Below, piece after piece: positions 36,484 through 64,000 of a stretch of 64,000 nt of DNA. The DNA comes from Anaeromyxobacter sp. (lineage in GTDB: Bacteria; Myxococcota; Myxococcia; Myxococcales; Anaeromyxobacteraceae), in NCBI GenBank assembly GCA_049840735.1, contig JASGJN010000026.1, forward strand, positions 288,001 to 352,000, given 5' to 3'. The notes beneath the pieces were generated by a model. That model ran no database searches, was not told where the DNA came from, and saw only the letters and a program-made list of their open reading frames with translations. The position numbers were made by a program, and so were the translations under genes. Position 1 is the first letter of the stretch. Each line of letters opens with the position of its first letter.

Positions 36484-38487
36484 GTGTCCCGCACCCAGCG
36501 TCTCGCGCGGTCGCGCGCCGACGTGCTAGAGCCGGAGGGTTCGCCCAAGGCAGCGGAGGGGACCCTGCTCATCCCGGTTGGACTCGACGAGGCCCGGCTC
36601 TCGCGCCTGCCCTGGGCGTCGATCGTCATCCTGGCGCTGAACGTGCTGGTGCTGGCGTGGCAGGGGCTGGCCTCCAACGACCGCGCGCTGGAGGCGAGCG
36701 CGCGCGCGCTGGTGGAGTACTGGTCCGAGCACCCGCAGCTGGAGACGCCGGCCTCGCTGCAGGGCACCCCCTACGACCGCGAGTGGATGCTGTGGGCGAC
36801 GGACACCTCGCCGGACGAGGTGGGCAGCAGCGCGGGCGATCCGGCCGAGCTGGAGGCGCTGGGCGAGGAGCTGGCGGCGGCGCGGGCGCGGGATCCCGAG
36901 GTGGCGTACGGCCTGGTGCCGGCGCGCGGGCTCTCGCAGCCGGGCTGGTTCACCGCCATGTTCCTGCACGGCGACCTCTTCCACCTGCTCGGGAACATGC
37001 TGATCTTCTGCCTGGTGGTGGGGCCGTTCCTGGAGGACGCCTGGGGCCTGGCCTTCTTCCTGGGCCTGTACCTCTGCGGCGGCCTGGCGGCCGGGGCGGC
37101 GCAGGTGGCGCAGGACGCGTCCTCGACCGTCCCCATCATCGGCGCGTCCGGGGCCATCTCCGCCTGCCTGGGGGCGTTCGCGCTGCGCTTCGCGCACCGC
37201 AAGGTGAGGATCTTCTACTGGTTCTGGTGGTTCATCCGCGGGACCTTCTTCATGCCGGCGTGGCTCTTCGCCTTCTTCGGCTTCACCATGGACCTGCTCA
37301 ACCTCCAGCTGAGCCGCGGCGGCTCGGGCGGCGGCGTCGCCTACGCCGCGCACGTGGGCGGGTTCCTGGCCGGGCTGGCGGTGGCGATGGTGGTGCGCGC
37401 CACGGGGCTCGACGCGAAGCTGGGGCGCGAGGGGGTCGGCAAGTGGGGGGCCAGCTTCGCCGCCTCGCGGGCGCAGGACGCGCTGGCGAGCGGCGACCTG
37501 TTCGCGGCGCGGCAGCGGCTGGAGGCGGCGGTGGACGCCAAGCCGCGCGACCTCGACGCGCTGCTGGAGCTGGCGCGGCTGGAGGCGAAGCGGTTCGACC
37601 GCGCGCGCGCCACCGAGCTGGTGGAGCGGGCGCTGGGGATGCAGCTCACGGCCGGGGATCGCGCCGGGGCCAAGGCGCTGCTGCTGGAGCTGGGCGGCTG
37701 GATCCAGCCCGAGCTGCTGCGCCCGGCCACCGCCTTCCGCGCGGCCGAGCTGGTCGCGGCGGAGGACCCTGGGCTGGCCGACCAGCTCGACGACGCCGCG
37801 GCCGCGGGCGGCGGCGCGGTGGGCGCCAAGGCGCTGGCGCGGATGCTGCGGCGCGCGCGGGCTGGCGCGCCGGAGCGCGCGCGGGCGCTGGCCGAGCGGC
37901 TGGTGGGGTTCCCGGGCGCGCCGCCCGAGCTGGTGGAGCAGGCGCGGGCGCTGCTCTCGCAGCTGGCGCCGCCGCCGCCGGAGGACCGCGCCATCTCGCT
38001 GGAGCTGGAGCTGCCGGCTGCGCCGCCGCCTCCGCCAGCGGCCGGAGCGCTGGGCCAGGGCCCGGTGCAGGTGCTGCACTGCCGGATCACCGGGCTGCTG
38101 CCGCAGGGGCTGGCGGTGGTGGACGGGACCGGGAGGGCCGGGGTGGTGGCGCTGGGGCGGGTGGCGGCGGTGGCCGCCGGGCTGGTGGAGGCCGCGCCCA
38201 CGCCGGCGGCGGCGTCCGCGCCCAGGCTGCTGCTGGACCTGCTGCTGGTGCCGGCGGAGGGGCACCCCGCCCGCACCGTGCTGCGCGTGCCCGCCCACGG
38301 GCTGGGCCTGCAGGCGCTCTACCCCGGGCTGGCGCCCGCCGACGCCTGGGCCCGGCTGGTGGAGGCGCTGGTGGCGGGCGGGGCCAGGCCGGTCCCGTCG
38401 CACGCCGCGGTGGCTGGCCGGCCCTTCGGACGCCACGCCGACGCGAGCGCCTTCGAGGCGGCAGCCTGGGGCCGCCCGCTGGCCTGA
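36484..38487 (+). CDS. Rhomboid intramembrane serine protease with helical C-terminal extension (start uncertain)
   Basis: MFLHGD..HLLGNM, IGASGAI, AYAAHVGGF. Confidence 0.9.
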   Translation: MSRTQRLARSRADVLEPEGSPKAAEGTLLIPVGLDEARLSRLPWASIVILALNVLVLAWQGLASNDRALEASARALVEYWSEHPQLETPASLQGTPYDREWMLWATDTSPDEVGSSAGDPAELEALGEELAAARARDPEVAYGLVPARGLSQPGWFTAMFLHGDLFHLLGNMLIFCLVVGPFLEDAWGLAFFLGLYLCGGLAAGAAQVAQDASSTVPIIGASGAISACLGAFALRFAHRKVRIFYWFWWFIRGTFFMPAWLFAFFGFTMDLLNLQLSRGGSGGGVAYAAHVGGFLAGLAVAMVVRATGLDAKLGREGVGKWGASFAASRAQDALASGDLFAARQRLEAAVDAKPRDLDALLELARLEAKRFDRARATELVERALGMQLTAGDRAGAKALLLELGGWIQPELLRPATAFRAAELVAAEDPGLADQLDDAAAAGGGAVGAKALARMLRRARAGAPERARALAERLVGFPGAPPELVEQARALLSQLAPPPPEDRAISLELELPAAPPPPPAAGALGQGPVQVLHCRITGLLPQGLAVVDGTGRAGVVALGRVAAVAAGLVEAAPTPAAASAPRLLLDLLLVPAEGHPARTVLRVPAHGLGLQALYPGLAPADAWARLVEALVAGGARPVPSHAAVAGRPFGRHADASAFEAAAWGRPLA

Positions 38488-54918: not shown

Positions 54919-55791
54919 CTACCACCCGGGCGGCGGCTCGGCGTACGAGCCGCGGAACGGCTGGGCGCTGTCGCGCAGGCTGCGGTCGTCGGCGCGGGCC
55001 AGCCGCCGGTCCACGTCGATGCCCACCGCGGCCAGGCCGCGCCGGTCGTCGTAGCGGAGCGTGAGCACGGCGGCGGGCGCGTCGCTGGCGCGGTCGAACG
55101 GGACCTCCTCGACGGCCGAGGTGTGCGCCTCCCCGAACTCCGTCCCCAGCCCCGGCCGCCCGGCGCTCCGCTCCGCCTTGCTCGCCGCCGGCGGCGGGGC
55201 CGCGGGCGCCTGGGCCACCGGCCCGGAGGCGTCGGCCTCGGCCTGCGGGGCCGGCGCGCTGCGCAGCCCCAGGTCGTCCTCCTCCTCCCAGCGGTGGTGC
55301 GGCCGCGGCACCACGACCACCGGGCGCGGCCGCTCCGGGAAGACGGCCACGCCGATCACGCCCACGTCGCGGGCGTCGCCCATCCGCGCGGCGTAGGAGC
55401 GGGAGACGCTGGAGAACCGGAAGGCCGCCACCTCGGCCTGGCTGAGCCTGAAGCCGTCCACGGTGAGCGTGCCCCAGGCGTCCACCAGGTAGCCGCGCTT
55501 CTCCACCGAGGCCGGGCGCCCGTCCACCACGTCGCGCCCGTCCACCGAGGCCACCACCTCGACCCGCTGCGCCGAGCCGTTGTGGAAGCGGAGCAGGTAG
55601 CGCTGGCCCTTCTGGCCCAGCACGTAGGTGCGCCCCTGGTGCTGGAAGGTGGGGAGCGCGCGCCCCGCGGCGTCCACCAGCTCGAACGACCACGGGCCGG
55701 AGCGCGACGCGGGGGTCAGTGCAGGGGTGCGGGCGGGGGCGCAGGCCAGCAGGGCGGCGCAGAGGGCGAGGGCGAGGGGGGCGCGGGACAT
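54919..55791 (-). CDS. Conserved hypothetical lipoprotein
   Basis: LLAC; SVDGRDVVDG, DGFRLS..VAAFRF, GVIGVAVF, GLGTEFGE; SD AAGGAG. Confidence 0.8.
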   Translation of the reverse strand: MSRAPLALALCAALLACAPARTPALTPASRSGPWSFELVDAAGRALPTFQHQGRTYVLGQKGQRYLLRFHNGSAQRVEVVASVDGRDVVDGRPASVEKRGYLVDAWGTLTVDGFRLSQAEVAAFRFSSVSRSYAARMGDARDVGVIGVAVFPERPRPVVVVPRPHHRWEEEDDLGLRSAPAPQAEADASGPVAQAPAAPPPAASKAERSAGRPGLGTEFGEAHTSAVEEVPFDRASDAPAAVLTLRYDDRRGLAAVGIDVDRRLARADDRSLRDSAQPFRGSYAEPPPGW

Positions 55792-55890
55792 GGACGGCTC
55801 CTTTCGAAGCCTCGAACGCACCAGCCCGGGAAAGGATCTGTCCGGGCGCGCAGCGCGCCCGCCGGGACCGGTCGCTGCCCCTGGGCGGCG

Positions 55891-56787
55891 TCAGCCTCCG
55901 ACCAGCGCCGCCTCGACCGCTCGGAAGTCCTCCGGCGCCGGCGCCTCCAGCACCAGCCGCGCGCCGGTCACCGGGTGATCGATCTCCAGCCGCGCGGCGT
56001 GGAGCATGACCCGCGGCACGGCCTGCTCGCCGACGCGGCGGGGGCCGCCGTAGCGCGGGTCGCCCAGCAGCGGCGCGCCCAGGTGCGCGAGGTGGACGCG
56101 GATCTGGTGCGTGCGCCCGGTCTCCGGCCGCGCCTCGACCAGGGCGGCCTGCGGGCCGGCGCGGAGCGTGCGGTAGCGCGTGGCGGCGGGGTCGCCGGCG
56201 GGATCGACCCGGCGCAGGCCGGCGCGGGCCGGGTCCTTGCCCAGCGGCGCCTCCAGCCGCCCCTCGGGCGGCGCAGGCGGCCGCGCCACCAGCGCCAGGT
56301 AGGTCTTCTCCGGCGCGCCGGTCCGGAAAGCCTCGGCCAGCGCCGCGGCCGCGGCCGGGGTGCGCGCGAAGATGGTGACGCCGGAGGTCTCGCGGTCGAG
56401 CCGGTGGACCAGCGTCACCGGCGCGCCCAGCAGCGCCCCCACCAGCTCCGGGAGCGTGCCGCGGTCGGTGGTGAGCGTGGGCTGGGAGGGCACGCCGGCC
56501 GGCTTGTCCACCACCGCGATGTCGGCGTCGGCGTAGATCAGCCGCTCGCGCGCGAGCGCGGCCGGGGCCTCGGCGGCGCGCCCGCCCTCCTCCAGGTTCA
56601 CGACCACGCGCTGCCCGGGCCAGAGCGTGCGCGCGGCCACCTTGCAGCGCTTGCCGTCGAGGAAGACGCCGCCGGCGTCCAGCGCCCGGCGCGCCAGCCC
56701 GCGCGAGATCCCGCCGCGGGCGGCGATGAAGCGGTCGATGCGCTGGTTGGCGTCGCCGTCGGGGACGACCAGCGAGAGCTTGCGCAC
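55891..56787 (-). CDS. RluA/RluD-family pseudouridine synthase with S4 domain
   Basis: DKPAG, VHRLDRETSG, TGRTHQIRVH, GDPRYG. Confidence 0.95.
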   Translation of the reverse strand: MRKLSLVVPDGDANQRIDRFIAARGGISRGLARRALDAGGVFLDGKRCKVAARTLWPGQRVVVNLEEGGRAAEAPAALARERLIYADADIAVVDKPAGVPSQPTLTTDRGTLPELVGALLGAPVTLVHRLDRETSGVTIFARTPAAAAALAEAFRTGAPEKTYLALVARPPAPPEGRLEAPLGKDPARAGLRRVDPAGDPAATRYRTLRAGPQAALVEARPETGRTHQIRVHLAHLGAPLLGDPRYGGPRRVGEQAVPRVMLHAARLEIDHPVTGARLVLEAPAPEDFRAVEAALVGG

Positions 56788-57083
56788 TACGCCGCGCTCT
56801 TCGAGGCGGGGCAGCCGGCGCAGCAGTCGGACTTCGCGCCGCCGCCGCCGTCGGACGCCTTCTTCTCGCCGGCCTTCTCACCGTTGCCGGTGATGGCGGC
56901 GGGGTTCTTGCCGCCGTAGTCGGTGATGTAGAAGCCCGAGCCCTTGAAGGCGAAGCCGGCCGCCGAGATCAGCTTCTTGACCGGCGAGCCGCACACGTCG
57001 TGCAACTCGAGCGCCGGGGCGGACATCTTCTGCAGGGCGTCGAACCGCCCGCACTTGGGGCACTCGTACTCGTAGATGGGCAT
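56787..57083 (-). CDS. FmdB-family zinc ribbon protein
   Basis: MPIYEYECPKCG, FKGSGFYITDY. Confidence 0.92.
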   Translation of the reverse strand: MPIYEYECPKCGRFDALQKMSAPALELHDVCGSPVKKLISAAGFAFKGSGFYITDYGGKNPAAITGNGEKAGEKKASDGGGGAKSDCCAGCPASKSAA

Positions 57084-57242
57084 ACTCGTGCGACCTCTCT
57101 GCTCAGCAAACCTAAAATCCGGCGCCGCCCTGTCAAGCGGCCGCGCCCTCGCAGCGGCCGCCGCGGGACGCCCGGGCGCGTGCTAAGTAGGCGTCGTCCC
57201 GGAACATCCCCGGGCGGGGCGGACGAAGGGAAGGGATTTAGC

Positions 57243-58625
57243 ATGTCGCGGGCCGAGCTGGAAACGGTGCCACTCGAGATCGACACGCTGGTGGAGGCGC
57301 TGGATCAGGAGCGCGCGCGGTCGATCGCCGGGGTGGAGAGCGACCCAGGGCTCGTACGGCTGTATGCCGCCCACTCCAGGGTGGCCCACCGCCAGACGGT
57401 GACCGACCTGCGCGAGGCCGGGCAGGCGGCGCTGGCCGCCCGGGTGGCGGCGCTGCGGGCGGAGCGCGCCGCGGCCGAGCACGAGGAGCGCTGGCGGGCG
57501 CTGGAGGCGGCGGCGCACCAGCCGGGGCCGGACGGCGACGCGCCGCTGGCCGCGCTGGAGCTGGCGGTGCTGCGCGAGCCGGACCGGACCCGCCGGCTGG
57601 CGCTGGCGCGGGCCGCGGCGGACGCGCTGGAGCCGGCCGCGGCGGCGCGCGAGGCGGCGGTGGAGGCGCGCGCCCGGGCCGGCGCCGAGGTGGGCCTGGC
57701 GCCGGACTGGCGGGCGGTGGTGGAGGGCGACCAGCTGCTCGCGGCCAGCGACGACGCCTGGCGCGAGGTGCTCGGCTTCCGCGCCCGCCACGACCTGGGG
57801 CTGGCGCCGTCGCCGGGCGGGGACCTCACCCGCGGCGACCTGCTCTTCCTGCTGACGCTCTCGCGCTGGGACGGGCTGTTCCGCCCGGCGGCGCTGCGGG
57901 CCGCCGTCCACGCCACCGTCACCGCGCTGGGGCTGGACCTCTCCCGCCTCCGCATCGACGAGGGGACGCGCCCGGCGCAGTGGCCGGGGGTGCACGTGGT
58001 GGGCGCGCGGGTGGCCTGGCGCCCGCGGGGCGGGGCCGGGGACTGGCAGGACCTGCTGGCCGGCCTGCCGCGCGCGCTGGCCGCGACCCATGCCTCGCCG
58101 CACCGGCGCGAGCCGCTGCTGGGCCACGCGCTGGGGTGGCTGGTGGAGTCGCTGCTGCTCGAGCCGCGCTGGCTGGCGGACCACGCCGGCGTGGAGCGCA
58201 AGGTGGCGCCGGACCTGATCCGCGACCTGGCGCTGCGGCGCCTGTTCACGCTGCGTGCGCGGGCGGCCGCCTTCCGGATCGCGACCGAGGTGGAGCGCGG
58301 GCTCTCCGGCGCCGCCTGGCGCGAGGCCTACCGCGAGGCGCTCACCGCCGCCACCGGCGCGGCCTGGGAGGGCGTGCGCGCCGCGCGCGACGCGGACGGC
58401 GCGGCGCACGCCGCGGCGCTGGCCGGGGCGGGCGCCGGCGAAGCGCTCCGCCTGGCGGTGCGCGAGCAGCTGGACGAGGACTGGTGGCGCAACCCGCGGA
58501 CCGCCGCGTTCCTGGCCGGCCTGCTGGCCGGCGGCGCGCTGCCGGACCCTGAAGCCGGCGCGCCGCGCGAGCCGGCGCTGGCGGCGCAGGCCCTCGCGGC
58601 GAGGCTGGAGGGGAGCGCTCGCTAA
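57243..58625 (+). CDS. Helical hypothetical protein, possibly a degenerate M3-like zincin
   Basis: LLLEPRWL, EDWWRNP; no HExxH; stop TAA completed by the first base of the inserted element. Confidence 0.75.
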   Translation: MSRAELETVPLEIDTLVEALDQERARSIAGVESDPGLVRLYAAHSRVAHRQTVTDLREAGQAALAARVAALRAERAAAEHEERWRALEAAAHQPGPDGDAPLAALELAVLREPDRTRRLALARAAADALEPAAAAREAAVEARARAGAEVGLAPDWRAVVEGDQLLAASDDAWREVLGFRARHDLGLAPSPGGDLTRGDLLFLLTLSRWDGLFRPAALRAAVHATVTALGLDLSRLRIDEGTRPAQWPGVHVVGARVAWRPRGGAGDWQDLLAGLPRALAATHASPHRREPLLGHALGWLVESLLLEPRWLADHAGVERKVAPDLIRDLALRRLFTLRARAAAFRIATEVERGLSGAAWREAYREALTAATGAAWEGVRAARDADGAAHAAALAGAGAGEALRLAVREQLDEDWWRNPRTAAFLAGLLAGGALPDPEAGAPREPALAAQALAARLEGSAR

Positions 58626-60606
58626 GAGTTGTCCCACAATTCGCCAATCGGCGAAGCGTGGGCCGGGTCGGTTCGCCATCGGGCCCGCTCGGGCGTGGTC
58701 TGGCCGGAGCCAGCCTCATCCCGGGTTGGGCCCGTGGCCGTGCCGACGATTCGCCGAGCCACCGGTTTGCTTGCCGGTGTGGACGTCCGCCATGCGAAGG
58801 ACGGCTCGCGGGCGAAGAGGTCGGTTGACTCGGACCGGACGTCTTGCCGCCCGGGACAGCGAGGATCAAGAAGGTTTCCGATGGCGGCGCGGGCCTGCCG
58901 GGTGGCGTCGTAGTCGACGCGCGCCGTGGCTGGCTCGCCGGGCCGATCGAGGACGAGGAAGGCGCCGAGGACCGCGGAGACGGCGTCCCTGTCCCCTTCC
59001 AGCCCGCAGCGAGGGCAGCGGTGGACCCGGTCGGCGAGCGACTTCTCGACCCGGACGCCGCAGGGGCAGTGCTGGGAGAGGGCGGTGGTCTGCGTGGGGA
59101 TCCTGACCACGCCGCCAACGTTGCCAGCGACGGTTGCGGTGGCACGCGCCTCCCGGTCGATAGCCGCGAGCAGCGTCCCCGGCGTGAACGTGGCCACCCC
59201 GCGCCCCCAGGTGCGCGCCCAGGCGGTGATGGTCACGTCCTCGACGGCGAGCTGATAGCCGTGAGTGCGTACCACCTCGGCGGCGACCTGCCGGGCCCGG
59301 TCGCGCCGGGCCTGCGTCCACGACGACGCAGCGGCAGCCTGCTCAGCCCGGAGGAAGCGGTAGCGCTTCGAGAGCGTGTCCCGCCGGTAGGCCTGAAGCG
59401 GGACGCCGTCCGACCGCGCCAGCCGCGGGCCTCCAGGGATCACCTCGACCGGCGTGAGGCCGGCGGCGGCCCGCCGGCGGGCGCGCTTCTCCTGGCGCCT
59501 GGAGAGCCGGTACTGGGCCCGGTTCGCGGCCCGGCGCGACCGCTCCAGGGCCCGCTGCCTGCGCCGCTCACGGCGACTGCGGCCTCGGTCCCGCGCCTTG
59601 GCCTGACCGTCTAGCTCCACCCTGGTGAGCCGCAGGTCGCCCCCAGCCACCTGGGAGGCGATGGTCAGGTTGGACACGTTGACGTCTATCCCCGCCACGC
59701 GCTCCGCCTCGTCGTTGGCCGCAGCTTCCCGCCGTGCCTGCGCCGAAGGCGAGACGTACGGCTGGGCGAGGACCATCAGATGCGCCTCGTACCGCCAGCC
59801 ACCGGGCGCATGAGGCGACCGCGTACGCACCAGGTCGACCTTGTGCCAGCGGGCCGGGTCGGCCAGGTGATGGTCGAGGATGGGCTGGTTGCACGGCGCG
59901 GTGGGGAGGCGAACCGGCAGGACCAGGGCGCCTCCGGGGAGGCCGCTGAAGAGACCAGCGCCAGAGGCCCCTGATAGGACCACCAGTCAACGCGCCGATC
60001 GGCGGCCCCCGGGACCTGGAGGTGCCGCGGCTGGACGAAGTCGCCGCCGGGCCTGGTGTACCTGCCCCGGTGGCCTGCGAGGGAGCCGTGGAGCCGAAAG
60101 GTCTCCCATTTCCGCTCCCGGGTGTGTGACCGGGCCCGGCCAGGAAGCCGTGAGAAGTCGAACCAGCGCCCGACGCGGAGAAGTCCCTGCCGCTTGCCTT
60201 TCGCGTCCGGGAACAGGTGGCGCTCCACCGGCGTCCAGACCGAGTCGGCGAGGTGCATCGCCAGCGCCTTGGTGACGTTCCGGCGGAGGTGGGGCGCCGC
60301 GTCGAGGTGCGCGTAGGCCGCCTGCTCCAGCGCCTCGCGCGAGAGGCCGAGCCTGGCCCGGGTCTCGGAGGCGCTCCGGGCCCGCGCCTTCGTCGCCGCC
60401 CAGTAGGCCCGCACCCGGTCCCGCGCCGTCCGCTGGAGCGCGCGCCGGACCTGGTAGGCCCCGGAGAAGATACCTTCGAGCCGTCGTCGCTGCACCGGGT
60501 CGTGGAGGTCCAGGGCGAGCCGGAGCACCGACACCCCGTCCTCGCGCCGGCGGATCCAAGGCCGCTGCCGGTTCGGACCACGGGTTCGCTTGGCAGAGGC
60601 GCTCAC
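58622..60606 (-). CDS. Large TnpB/Cas12-like RuvC + zinc-ribbon nuclease (~660 aa), frameshift at ~59951; start uncertain
   Basis: RuvC-I VAGIDVN, Arg-rich helix, RuvC-II LAVED, SQHCPCG..HRCPRCG, RuvC-III DRDAVSA. Confidence 0.85.
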
Positions 60607-60940
60607 CCGCTCATCGTGAACCCATGCCCTGACATCTTGTTCAGTGAGGGTTGGCTTCCGCCGGTGGCCCGGGAAACGAGGCCACCGTGTTGTCCTCGCC
60701 GATGGCGGATACCGGGGAGTCCTGGGTCTTCGTATCCCGGTCTTCCGCCACAACCGGGTCGTCCGCGACGCCGCCTGGCGCCGTCACCGCAAACAGCGCG
60801 CCCGGGTCGAGCACGTCCTCGCTCGCCTCAAAGACTGGCGCGTCCTCCGGGACCACCGGCGGCGGGGGCGACACCTCGGATCCACGGTCGCCGCCGTGGC
60901 CTTCCTCTACAACCTCAAGCTCGAATTTCGGGACAGCTCC
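58625..60940. mobile_element. IS5-like inverted-repeat element with TA duplication, carrying a TnpB/Cas12-like gene and a transposase remnant
   Basis: Left AGAGTTGTCCCACAATTCG vs right (reverse complement) GGAGCTGTCCCGAAATTCG, 15/19; TA at 58623-24 and 60941-42. Confidence 0.85.
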
Positions 60941-60943
60941 TAG
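60651..60943 (+). pseudogene. C-terminal remnant of an IS5-like (DDE_Tnp_4-type) transposase
   Basis: ASAGGPGN, then after a frame change VLADGGYRG...HRKQRARVEHVLARLKDWRVLRD...AFLYNL, ending in the right IR. Confidence 0.85.
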
Positions 60944-61275
60944 CTCTTCTTCCGCAGCGCCCGGAGGATCTTCTCCTTCGTGCGGGAGGGCTGCGGGGCG
61001 GCGCGGCGCGCGACCGGCGCCGGGGCGGCCTCGGCCTGCGCCTCGCGGCGGCGCAGGAAGGCCTCGATCTCGTAGGAGAGCAGCTCGATCTCGAGGTCGC
61101 TGCGGGGCGGCGCGGCCCGCTCCAGCGGCGCCGCGCGCGGCAGCGCAGCGCCCAGGCGCATGCGCATCACGCGCTCCTCGTCCGCGGCCAGCTCCCGGAC
61201 CGGACCGCGCCGGAGCGCGGCCTGGGCGGCTGCCTCCGTCACGACCGCGGTGGTCCCCGTCTTCTTCGTCTGCAT
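60940..61275 (-). CDS. Small hypothetical protein
   Basis: LAADEERVMRMRLG, KEKILRALRKKS; GC3-rich. Confidence 0.75.
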   Translation of the reverse strand: MQTKKTGTTAVVTEAAAQAALRRGPVRELAADEERVMRMRLGAALPRAAPLERAAPPRSDLEIELLSYEIEAFLRRREAQAEAAPAPVARRAAPQPSRTKEKILRALRKKS

Positions 61276-61520
61276 GGTCCACATGGTAGGGGCCAGGGCT
61301 GACCTGTCCATTTTTCGCCGGCCCGCGACCGCGTCCCGCCCGGGCGGCCAAGCGCCCGTCCGGCAAGGGCTTTCCGTCTCACCCGGCCGGCGGCGATATC
61401 ACACACCCGTCCCCGGCCGATGTCTTGCGGGGCGGCTCGTCGGCGGTAAGGCTCCAGGGCGGCGGGGCCCGCCTGGCAGCGCGGCTGCCGGGCCGCGCAC
61501 CGCGGCGGGAGGCGCGATCC

Positions 61521-61973
61521 ATGGCCGGCTGGCAAGACAACCTGCTGGAGGACGACGAGCAGCTCCGGGCGCTGCTGGCCACCGTCCGGCGCGTGGCGGT
61601 GCTGGGCATCAAGACCGAGGCCCAGGCCGGGCAGCCGGCGTTCGACGTCCCCGAGGTCCTCGCCCGCGCCGGGCTGGAGATCGTCCCGGTGCCGGTCTAC
61701 TACCCGGAGGTCCAGGCCATCCTGGGCCAGCCGGTGTACCGGCGCGTGGCCGACGTGCCCGGCCCGCTCGACCTGGTGGACGTCTTCCGCCGCCCCACCG
61801 ACGTGCCGGCGCACGTGGACGACCTGCTGGCCAAGCGGCCTCGCGCGGTCTGGCTGCAGCTCGGCATCCGCAGCGACGCGGCCGCCGAGCGCCTGGCGCG
61901 CGAGGGGATCCAGGTGGTGCAGGACCGCTGCCTGAAGGTGGAGTGGCGGCGGCTGGGGCCGGGGAGGGCCTGA
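61521..61973 (+). CDS. CoA-binding protein (YccU-like)
   Basis: RVAVLG, DLVDVFRR, VWLQLGI, VVQDRC. Confidence 0.92.
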   Translation: MAGWQDNLLEDDEQLRALLATVRRVAVLGIKTEAQAGQPAFDVPEVLARAGLEIVPVPVYYPEVQAILGQPVYRRVADVPGPLDLVDVFRRPTDVPAHVDDLLAKRPRAVWLQLGIRSDAAAERLAREGIQVVQDRCLKVEWRRLGPGRA

Positions 61974-62112
61974 GGGCCCGTCGAACCGCGGCTGCGCCCC
62001 GTTGCTTCGTGACGCCAGGTGAACGGCGCTGCGCCGTCCGCCCCGGGTGCTGCTCTTCGGCCCCCGCCGGCGCGCCAGGGAACGCGCCGGCGGTTCGCGG
62101 CCTGCTGCGCCG

Positions 62113-62274
62113 CTACCTCGCCGCCGGGACCGAGACGGCCGGCAGCACCGTCATGACCTGCGGGGCGGTGACATAGCGGGGCGGAGAGGAGAGCTGCGCG
62201 GTGAACGTCGCCAGCAGGATGATGGCGAGCGCCAGGCAACCCCAGCCTTCGTACGTGCGGATCTTGACGACCAT
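62113..62274 (-). CDS. Small (53 aa) single-TM protein
   Basis: SD GGAGG; MVVKIRTYEGWGCLALAIILLATFTAQLSSPPRY... Confidence 0.6.
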   Translation of the reverse strand: MVVKIRTYEGWGCLALAIILLATFTAQLSSPPRYVTAPQVMTVLPAVSVPAAR

Positions 62275-62494
62275 GGTGCGACCTCCGTTGAGCGACGCAG
62301 AGAATCATACGCCCCGGAGGCAAGGCTATTTCATCCCGACAAGTACGAGGTCAGGACCACACCATGGGTCAACCTGAAGGATGCGACACCCTTGGTGACT
62401 GCGCGCTTGCGCGCGGCGCCGCAGCGGCGCGCGCAAGAGGCTGGGACCACTGGTGAAGCGGTTGGCGCACCTGGGCGGCGTGCGCCATACGTCG

Positions 62495-63442
<948 letters not shown>

Positions 63443-63523
63443 CCCTCAGGGGAAACCACTCTTCGGGGCGCGGCGCAACTTCGGGCCATGCGTCCCGCAA
63501 GGGGGCGGCGGGGTCGGCGCCTG

Positions 63524-63901
63524 CCCTTCGACTCCGCGGGCCCTGCGGGCCCGCTACGCTCAGGGCGAACGGATCCCCTGTCGCCGTTCGTCCTGAGCGT
63601 AGCGCCCGCTCAGCGGGCGCGGAGTCGAAGGACAGGCCACCACCGCCAGGGCGAACGGTCCGCCAGTCCTCCGTTCCTCCTGAGCGTAGCGCCCGCTCGG
63701 CGGGCGCGGAGTCGAAGGACAGGCCACCACCGCCAGGGCGAACGGTCCGCCTGTCTCCGTTCGTCCTGAGCGTAGCGCCCGCTCGGCGGGCGCGGAGTCG
63801 AAGGACAGGCCACCACCGCCCGGGCGAACGGATCCGCCTGTCCTCCGTTCGTCCTGAGCGTAGCGCCCGCTCAGCGGGCGCGGAGTCGAAGGACAGGCCA
63901 C
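63524..63901. repeat. REP cluster: one reverse copy plus four tandem forward copies (86-88 bp period)
   Basis: CCGTTCGTCCTGAGCGTAGCGCCCGCTC(A/G)GCGGGCGCGGAGTCGAAGGACAGGCCACC at 63584, 63671, 63757, 63845. Confidence 0.93.
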
Positions 63902-64000
63902 CTCGCTACGGATTCCCCAGCCCCAGGTCCGGCGACTCTGCCCCGGTGCTGCCGCGCGGCGGCGGCGCGGTGTCGGACGTGGAGCCTGTCGGGCTCGCGT

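Follow-up and report, generated by a model that had tools for sequence, protein, structure and literature searches.

Background

TnpB nucleases encoded beside DDE transposases have already been catalogued as the branches DDE-1 to DDE-6 (Altae-Tran et al. 2023, PMC10691335), whose partners have been named as ISL2, IS630 and IS1031 (PMC13565253). As far as the accessible text of PMC10691335 goes, these elements have tnpB beside the transposase, inverted terminal repeats, a tnpB 3' end near the element end and solo copies with identical ends, and no RNA structure, guide register, TAM or experiment is given for them. A 2026 review asks why a DDE transposon with DNA-breaking excision carries a guided nuclease (PMC13565253, section 6.2) and proposes the pseudoknot as a restriction on the kinds of transposon able to carry one. 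Our literature search, which covered mostly sources other than subscription journals, found no experimental study of an IS5-linked bacterial TnpB.

In ISDra2, an IS200/IS605 element, the omegaRNA of TnpB overlaps the disordered C-terminal tail, the bases directly preceding the guide are paired with its 5' stem loop, a hairpin lies just upstream and the guide comes from the variable flank (Nakagawa et al. 2023, PMC10097598); a homing model has been put forward for elements of this type (bioRxiv 10.1101/2023.03.14.532601). IS607 and Fanzor provide precedents for a scaffold that borrows target bases (Yoon et al. 2023, PMC10711439): according to the accessible sections of that work, fixed flanking or duplicated bases belong to the scaffold of IS607 TnpB and of the TIR-bound Fanzor2* and Fanzor1, the repeats are part of the RNA, and the pseudoknot is kept in TnpB and Fanzor2 and lost in Fanzor1. 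Small elements that lack a protein gene but retain both ends and a guide scaffold have been described as Ghost Spu-1 loci (Saito et al. 2023, PMC10432273) and PATE-like elements (bioRxiv 10.1101/2023.03.14.532601).

Here, we describe an IS5-family element carrying tnpB in a 64,000-nt stretch of an Anaeromyxobacter sp. contig (the window, to which all coordinates refer). It shares the gene arrangement, repeats and solo copies of the DDE branches, and its predicted RNA has the layout of ISDra2. Unlike ISDra2, which moves by Y1 peel-and-paste, it has a DDE transposase, inverted repeats and a TA duplication; its scaffold is longer (about 232 nt against a 116-nt core), as is the ordered part of its protein (about 630 residues against about 380), and its pseudoknot would use a target-site base. 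The IS5-family RNA appears to keep the pseudoknot through this duplicated base and, in contrast to Fanzors, does so in a bacterial host.

The element and its insertion site

The element lies at 58625..60940 on the minus strand (2316 bp), inserted at CTAG, and is an internally deleted form of full elements of 2.63-2.83 kb. It has the HTH and DDE transposase, short inverted repeats, short duplication and CTAG-like target of the IS5 family, and we presume that it belongs to the ISL2 subgroup. The DDE transposase and tnpB sit within common inverted repeats, as in other DDE-associated TnpB loci; the transposase, the repeats and the TA on both sides rule out an IS200/IS605 or IS607 identity. What remains of the transposase is a 3' stub (60644..60943, plus strand), recognised by sequence and domain matches. 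Pfam assigns HTH_Tnp_4 and DDE_Tnp_4 to the transposase, and its best NCBIfam model is IS5_4, with a score below the cut-off of that model. The transposase gene adjoins tnpB in full elements and is missing from many copies; no intact transposase was found in the assembly.

The terminal inverted repeats, at 58625..58643 on the scaffold side and 60922..60940 on the transposase side, match at 15 of 19 positions. The original prediction had singled out two differences between them as bases that pair in a hairpin; these do pair, but the repeats differ at four positions (58625, 58629, 58636 and 58637), and the third difference to be considered, 58625, falls in a predicted pseudoknot. Sequence and flank logos place the scaffold-side TA duplication at 58623..58624. 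On the other flank, CTA at 60941..60943 (minus strand) contains the second TA and may also serve as TAM. Among 29 called 5' flanks, about three of which start from ends that look miscalled (L014, L023 and L049), these positions are C in 25, T in 25 and A in 26. Behind the scaffold, the flanks of 67 elements are variable from the fourth base on, and conservation in the homolog comparison drops abruptly past the flanking TAG.

In five of nine relatives' loci the element is absent and 17-175 bp separate the orthologous host genes. These nine loci and the flanks of actinobacterial insertions (three taken, two compared) yielded no exact empty allele, all being too diverged at the site to reveal the duplication. 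Precise excision, a predicted step for the IS5-tnpB family, has been reported for IS5 and IS1301, according to the accessible part of PMC5493358.

Architecture of the predicted scaffold

From the sequence comparisons, the last 232 bases of the element, read on the minus strand (58622..58853, including the target-site TAG), likely form the omegaRNA scaffold of TnpB, as covariation, a codon-phase test and an RNA model suggest. An omegaRNA-like scaffold ending at the element boundary, followed by a variable flank, had been anticipated in the original prediction and is well supported: its bases covary, it is conserved irrespective of codon position, a pseudoknot is predicted and copies free of the protein gene retain it. 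It extends well beyond the two hairpins noted at first.

The scaffold would begin with stem P1 (58836..58853, minus strand, as for all stems below), in which 96% of cells are paired and three of six pairs show double changes; its 6-nt loop holds the 5' strand of the pseudoknot (58842-58845). P2 (58828-58833 with 58754-58759) closes a domain at 58754..58833 that encloses P3, P4 (58790-58812) and P5 (58760-58779), the last being a hairpin already placed at the same coordinates by the original prediction. The long P6 arm (58667..58747), made of four stacked helices, shows the strongest covariation. The terminal hairpin P7 (58629..58666), the 3' arm of which is the inner part of the inverted repeat, contains the other hairpin predicted earlier, whose position on the minus strand (58633-58662, its end 8 nt short of the boundary at 58625) we could confirm; three lower pairs of P7 are not formed in the local copy. 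RNAalifold had proposed other pairs (columns 34-37/261-264 and 123-125/222-224), which were dropped by eye in favour of P2 and P7, P2 being preferred because of a compensatory change and its persistence in Actinobacteria.

The region 58600-58900 folds with a z-score of -2.78, none of 100 shuffles being as stable, and the terminal hairpin of the local copy with -2.6. When the final 54 nt of 46 non-redundant homologs were folded, z fell below -2 in 25 as sense and in 28 as antisense, whereas a coding control did so in 1 of 46; the hairpin folds better as sense in 25 of 46. Since it is stable on both strands, the terminal hairpin alone cannot tell the strand; the structure was drawn on the sense strand, and even there G-U outnumber A-C combinations by only 114 to 68.

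Where the guide would begin

The predicted pseudoknot joins the P1 loop to the 3' strand at 58624..58627 (minus strand), which consists of the three terminal bases of the element and the T of the TA duplication. With this T in the pseudoknot, the target site would complete the scaffold and, by analogy with ISDra2, the guide would most likely start at 58621, after TAG. With ends called independently of the final four bases, 69 of 77 scaffolds allow all four pairs. Among the eight incomplete cases, L044, L057, L059 and L065 are miscalled ends, L077 is cut by a contig end, L093 has lost its end and L064 has a doubtful loop call, which leaves L038, with one broken pair, as the sole real break. Earlier counts of 68/68 for the terminal T and 65/65 for the pseudoknot were discarded as circular, the end finder having required a TTAG-like motif and so dropped 13 of 78 loci, L038 included. 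Three of the four pairs hardly vary, and the variable one, which by itself is not significant in the 29-sequence test (E about 54), has switched between A-U and G-C at least three times on a 44-protein tree.

The predicted guide is some 16 nt of host DNA at 58606..58621 (minus strand), with a start possibly at 58622. The flank-derived guide of the original prediction is consistent with the variable flank; its choice of TA as guide start needs correcting, as the T is predicted to be scaffold. Placing TAG at -3 to -1 agrees with ISDra2 and Cas12m2, in which A at -2 forms a non-canonical pair and position -1 is free. We predict CTA(G) as the TAM, with 58622 supplying the G once the site is empty. 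The 29 called 5' flanks show no conservation upstream of CTA, which led us to reject any longer TAM and with it the sequences first proposed (...AAGAGC or ...AGCTA).

A different register of the same RNA and homing process, in which TA closes the scaffold, the G at 58622 is the first guide base and CTA or NCTA serves as TAM, is less probable but has to be taken seriously. For Fanzors, the duplicated bases alone are described as scaffold in the accessible sections of PMC10711439, and a palindromic CTAG target fully accounts for the conserved G; the A at -2 and free -1 of ISDra2 and Cas12m2, however, fit TAG, and IS607 TnpB draws a fixed flanking base into its scaffold.

Under the TAG register, the filled junction would read T-TAG and be spared through that one base. 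In 71 of 77 cases the element closes with T, and C-TAG occurs at none of the scaffold-bearing ends; at the opposite end, the corresponding base is A in 20, G in 6 and C in 3 of 29. The invariant terminal T fits the pseudoknot as well as self-sparing, and the data do not separate the two. A C16 remnant that lacks P1 ends in C-TAG, which counts against the explanation favoured here. A search of the genome for a second target found no CTAG site followed by at least eight matching guide bases.

The TnpB protein

The tnpB gene (58622..60606, minus strand, about 660 codons, its start taken from homologs) carries a frameshift near 59951-59954 and takes its stop codon from the target-site TAG. As first predicted, the reading frame extends past RuvC-III to the element end, by 122 codons and not about 100. 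The RuvC D/E/D residues and a zinc finger are present, and the gene is intact in the C20 paralog P0002; D353, E501 and D586 are invariant in 94 homologs. NCBIfam TnpB models score the product below their curated cut-offs. The predicted fold of P0002 matches TnpB and Cas12, best Cas12m2 (E 1.6e-10, 15% identity), although TM-scores to TnpB and Cas12f are similar to that of Cas12m2 (Cas12m TM 0.41).

Cas12m (type V-M; PDB 8hhm, PMC10442227) also resembles the protein in size and in being arginine-rich, the protein having a long stretch of this kind, and differs from it by an H-D-D site and in not taking its guide from a transposon end. A Cas12m or CRISPR type V identity was rejected on the D-E-D site and on the lack of a CRISPR array among the repeats found at 55000-64000; PADLOC matches are weak and confined to the C-terminal part. 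The likeness nevertheless bears on what the nuclease does. We consider it unlikely that the RNA guides binding without cutting, TnpB sitting on the empty site as a roadblock, protector or mark in the manner of Cas12m. Such a role would suit the top fold match, Cas12m2, which binds without cutting, and the arginine-rich stretch, and restoring D-E-D in Cas12m2 failed to bring back cutting (accessible part of PMC10442227). Against it stand the canonical D-E-D, invariant in the 94 homologs, the similar TM-scores to TnpB and Cas12f, and guides made of variable flank DNA in place of fixed promoters.

Whichever the activity, cutting of the empty site, as originally proposed, cannot come from the local frameshifted tnpB. 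Given this frameshift and the lack of an intact transposase in the assembly, the guide could act only with the intact paralog P0002, in trans; the local copy is broken and probably idle, and the homing loop is probably dormant in this Anaeromyxobacter genome.

Conservation of the predicted RNA structure

The original prediction had proposed a covariance model from homolog 3' ends, and covariation was indeed found. When MAFFT aligned the 29 homologs without reference to structure, 89.1% of cells were paired, compared with 77.5% in shuffles and 33-42% with partners slid, and 40 of 71 proposed pairs show double changes. Under a tree-aware null, three of 27,730 pairs tested pass E<=0.05, all of them proposed and all in the P6 arm; at E<=1, seven of eight are proposed pairs. 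Invariant columns fall on codon positions as 46/56/3 in the protein core and 22/22/22 in the scaffold (44 sequences). The RNA model from the 29 sequences also detects, on the tnpB strand, actinobacterial ends outside its training set. It matches in 5 of 60 other genomes of the taxonomic family and in none of 150 drawn from the phylum, for which only 13 candidates were scored per genome. No Rfam covariance model matched 58622-58853 up to E 5.

These patterns make it quite improbable that the conservation reflects end recognition of the DNA by the transposase, or constraint on the protein tail, with no guide RNA involved. The terminal hairpin is indeed equal on both strands and overlaps the inverted repeat, the frame is open to the element end in most homologs, and a C22 derivative kept both repeats with only the last ~35 nt of the scaffold. 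Yet covariation reaches 230 nt inward and codon periodicity is lacking; the tail is predicted to be disordered (pLDDT below 50 over residues 629-707 of the AlphaFold model of P0002, where the scaffold begins), and several homologs carry frameshifts in it; in L014, L019 and L023 the loop base tracks the repeat on the scaffold side and not its counterpart; and the fold is kept, but without P4 and with the upper part of P7 shortened, in protein-free copies.

A possible homing cycle

We therefore regard a flank-guided omegaRNA scaffold, read in the TAG register with a CTAG TAM and serving homing to the empty site, as the probable and best explanation of the whole. The guide RNA would be processed from a transcript that crosses tnpB and continues past the element end, and TnpB would read as TAM the CTAG that is also the transposase target. 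A look for sequencing runs over 57600-61600 listed none, which bears neither way on expression. Precise excision would leave C-TAG followed by the guide match; TnpB would cut this site, and repair from the sister chromosome would restore the element. Cut-and-paste excision already leaves a break (PMC13565253, section 6.2), which makes a guided nuclease less useful and counts against homing. That the RNA and TnpB instead steer the transposase back into the empty site, by RNA-guided insertion and not recombination, is very improbable: the predicted TAM equals the transposase target and full elements carry both genes together, but the nuclease keeps its active site, the transposase is missing from many copies, and the flank differs in every copy with no sign of repeated targeting.

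More tentatively, though still as a real possibility, the family may be an active bacterial cut-and-paste one whose guide RNA is completed by a duplicated base. CTAG would then be at once TAM, stop codon for both genes and last pseudoknot pair, the terminal base would keep the occupied site from being cut, and mini-elements carrying only the guide and a promoter of their own would use the nuclease in trans. If true, this would be a bacterial parallel of the capture of Fanzors by eukaryotic transposons, and it would show directly that precise excision of IS5-type elements is frequent enough for homing to be selected. The family offers an exact test of the review's question, with a scaffold model, a predicted guide start and a predicted TAM, and as material intact members, a minimal scaffold of 184 nt that occurs in nature and a rescue mutation that has arisen naturally at least three times; it would also represent an uncharacterised clade of RNA-guided nucleases with a predicted rare four-base TAM.

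Protein-free copies

The 184-nt minimal scaffold belongs to a 341-bp element (G053 L115:2454-2794) with both repeats and no tnpB match. It resembles the Ghost Spu-1 loci and PATE-like elements, from which it differs in being a bacterial IS5-type element, with a function in trans that is predicted. Promoter scans returned nothing in the local element or in the one mini-element scanned; read by eye only, the mini-elements show a promoter-like stretch.

A probable RNA scaffold at the end of tnpB

On the basis of sequence, the minus-strand segment 58622-58853 is likely a real omegaRNA scaffold of functional type; the kind of element carrying it is already catalogued, and the copy in the window is broken. 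Both hairpins of the original prediction (58633-58662 and 58760-58779) were recovered, and the region 58600-58900 folded more stably than 100 of 100 shuffles (z = -2.78). We aligned 29 of 46 non-redundant tails, all from outside the actinobacterial clade, with MAFFT (the Micromonosporaceae/Nonomuraea group and the deleted locus L071 were left out), and a 71-pair structure with helices P1 to P7 was drawn using RNAalifold and a pair scan. Paired cells amounted to 89.1 % in these 29 ends versus 77.5 % in shuffled and 33-42 % in slid controls, the shuffle being blind to kinship and the structure coming from the same alignment; double changes were found in 40 of the 71 proposed pairs. A tree-aware null of our own was therefore run on 27,730 column pairs: three pairs reached E ≤ 0.05, all within the proposed long arm P6 (58667-58747), and eight reached E ≤ 1, seven of them proposed.

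Counts of invariant columns at the three codon positions, taken from 44 sequences, were 46/56/3 for the protein core versus 22/22/22 for the scaffold. On the tnpB strand, the covariance model matched 71 of 72 sources searched, among them actinobacterial ends on which it had not been trained. The window copy forms 65 of the 71 pairs, and no Rfam model matched 58622-58853. Long additional hairpins extend some actinobacterial scaffolds (L050, L053, L059 and L066) to about 320 nt, so large insertions are tolerated by the scaffold.

Altae-Tran et al. (PMC10691335) described six branches of TnpB that are linked to DDE transposases and have inverted repeats, and suggested related guide use for them; these branches may include the present clade. 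In a 2026 review (PMC13565253), the partners are named as ISL2, IS630 and IS1031, and the benefit is regarded as an open question. A search of mostly open-access papers listed no experimental work on TnpB linked to IS5.

The element and its copies

The IS5-family element (58625-60940, minus strand) has TA at both sides. Its minus-strand tnpB is interrupted by a two-base duplication near 59951-59954, and its second gene content is a 3' stub of a DDE transposase. The terminal inverted repeats mismatch at 4 of 19 positions, including the pair of bases within the terminal hairpin (58633-58662) that the original prediction had pointed out. The insertion point corresponds to the overlapping stop codons (58622-58625 and 60940-60943) of convergent host genes at 57000-58625 (plus strand) and 60940-61311 (minus strand), both of which retain a stop; transcription of the latter could continue into tnpB and the scaffold. 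At 63512-63919, four REP-like palindromic repeats stand in tandem with a spacing of about 87 nt, accompanied by one inverted copy, and a similar motif adjoins the orthologous host gene in locus L085.

Six pieces of this family were found in the source genome, five with a scaffold match; among them, only the copy on contig C20 has an uninterrupted tnpB ORF (P0002, 707 aa). A full-length transposase homolog used as query returned only fragments, i.e. no intact transposase, from this assembly (94 % complete). Two deletion derivatives in this genome have both repeats: C13 617630-618177 kept the whole scaffold and a transposase 5' piece, and C22 684348-685389 kept no more of the scaffold than its final ~35 nt. 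A decayed remnant lacking P1 and ending in C-TAG (L070, C16 ~37950-38043) abuts the C16 copy, and its CTAG appears to have been the insertion site of that copy.

Across species genomes, the scan gave 68 homologous loci in Myxococcota, Actinomycetota and others. Full elements measure 2.63-2.83 kb and encode a divergent HTH_Tnp_4/DDE_Tnp_4-type transposase, whose top NCBIfam model, IS5_4, scored under the cut-off. For the 29 elements with a called 5' end, the flanking bases are C (25), T (25) and A (26), with no conservation beyond CTA; the 3' flank is TAG, variable thereafter. The stop codon of both element ORFs is usually a target-site TAG. No exact empty allele was found among the relatives' loci compared. 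CTAG occurs 1415 times in the source genome versus ~15,800 expected by base content, and hence both the transposase target and the predicted target-adjacent motif (TAM) are rare. Actinobacterial copies L052, L055, L138 (genome G090) and L044, L046, L047 have their 5' flank in common, suggesting that these copies are nested within the end of a different repeated element.

Predicted pseudoknot, guide start and TAM

The element's three terminal bases, together with the T of TA, are the complement of the P1 loop AAGA (58845-58842). In 77 scaffolds whose ends were called blind to the last bases, all four pairs of this predicted pseudoknot are possible in 69. The variable pair is A-U in 41, G-C in 30 and G-U in 3, and a tree of 44 rows (L037 and L076, too short, were left out) calls for a minimum of three A-U/G-C switches in it; alone, it fell below significance in the 29-sequence test. 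The ISDra2 pseudoknot spans -6 to -2, counted back from the guide, with the A at -2 paired non-canonically and -1 free (PMC10097598); the layout at -2/-1 is identical in Cas12m2 (PMC10442227). Mapped here, this register would place TAG at -3 to -1, with a guide from 58621 and CTAG as TAM, a placement by analogy that we consider reasonably probable; a guide from 58622 with CTA as TAM is a doubtful second option. As in IS607 TnpB and Fanzors, where fixed flank bases are taken into the scaffold (PMC10711439), flank bases are predicted to join it here.

TnpB protein and proposed mechanism

No variation was seen among 94 homologs at residues D353, E501 and D586 or at four cysteines. The structure model (mean pLDDT 75; below 50 for residues 629-707) matched the folds of Cas12m2, Cas12f and TnpB at 10-16 % identity. 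The codon of G632 falls in the first scaffold stem, and the ORF extends 122 codons past the RuvC-III aspartate, not the ~100 first estimated.

In the model established for IS200/IS605, scarless excision leaves an empty site, which undergoes guided cleavage and is then repaired with the sister copy as template (bioRxiv 10.1101/2023.03.14.532601). Such a homing loop in this IS5-family element would need precise excision. IS1301 is also a member of the IS5 family. Precise excision has been reported for IS5 and IS1301 (PMC5493358). Empty and filled sites differ by a single base before TAG (C vs T). Of 77 scaffolds, 71 have T as the final element base and none ends in C-TAG; unlike this T, the mirror base at the opposite end is variable. 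With CTAG as TAM, the terminal T would spare the filled site (T-TAG vs C-TAG) from the element's own nuclease; as the pseudoknot also requires this T, the counts do not prove self-sparing. In the source genome, the window-copy RNA would be loadable only by the C20 protein, the C20 scaffold differing from that of the window at 13 of 232 positions. Since no empty site would arise without an intact transposase, the guide system is probably dormant in this genome.

Protein-free mini-elements

One element in genome G053 measures 341 bp and has both repeats, flanked by CTA and TAG. It gave no tnpB match, and from its 184-nt scaffold both P4 and the upper part of the terminal hairpin are missing; a second variant shows 87 % identity. 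The tnpB search of this genome gave fragments only. Ghost loci are known in Fanzor (PMC10432273). Protein-free loci with a compact scaffold are L115:2454-2794 and L115:14313-14650 (contig C107 of G053), as well as L111, L113 and L114. Four scaffold matches and a weaker fifth lie within 20 kb of one contig, and the mini-elements contain an AT-rich stretch that, read by eye, is promoter-like.
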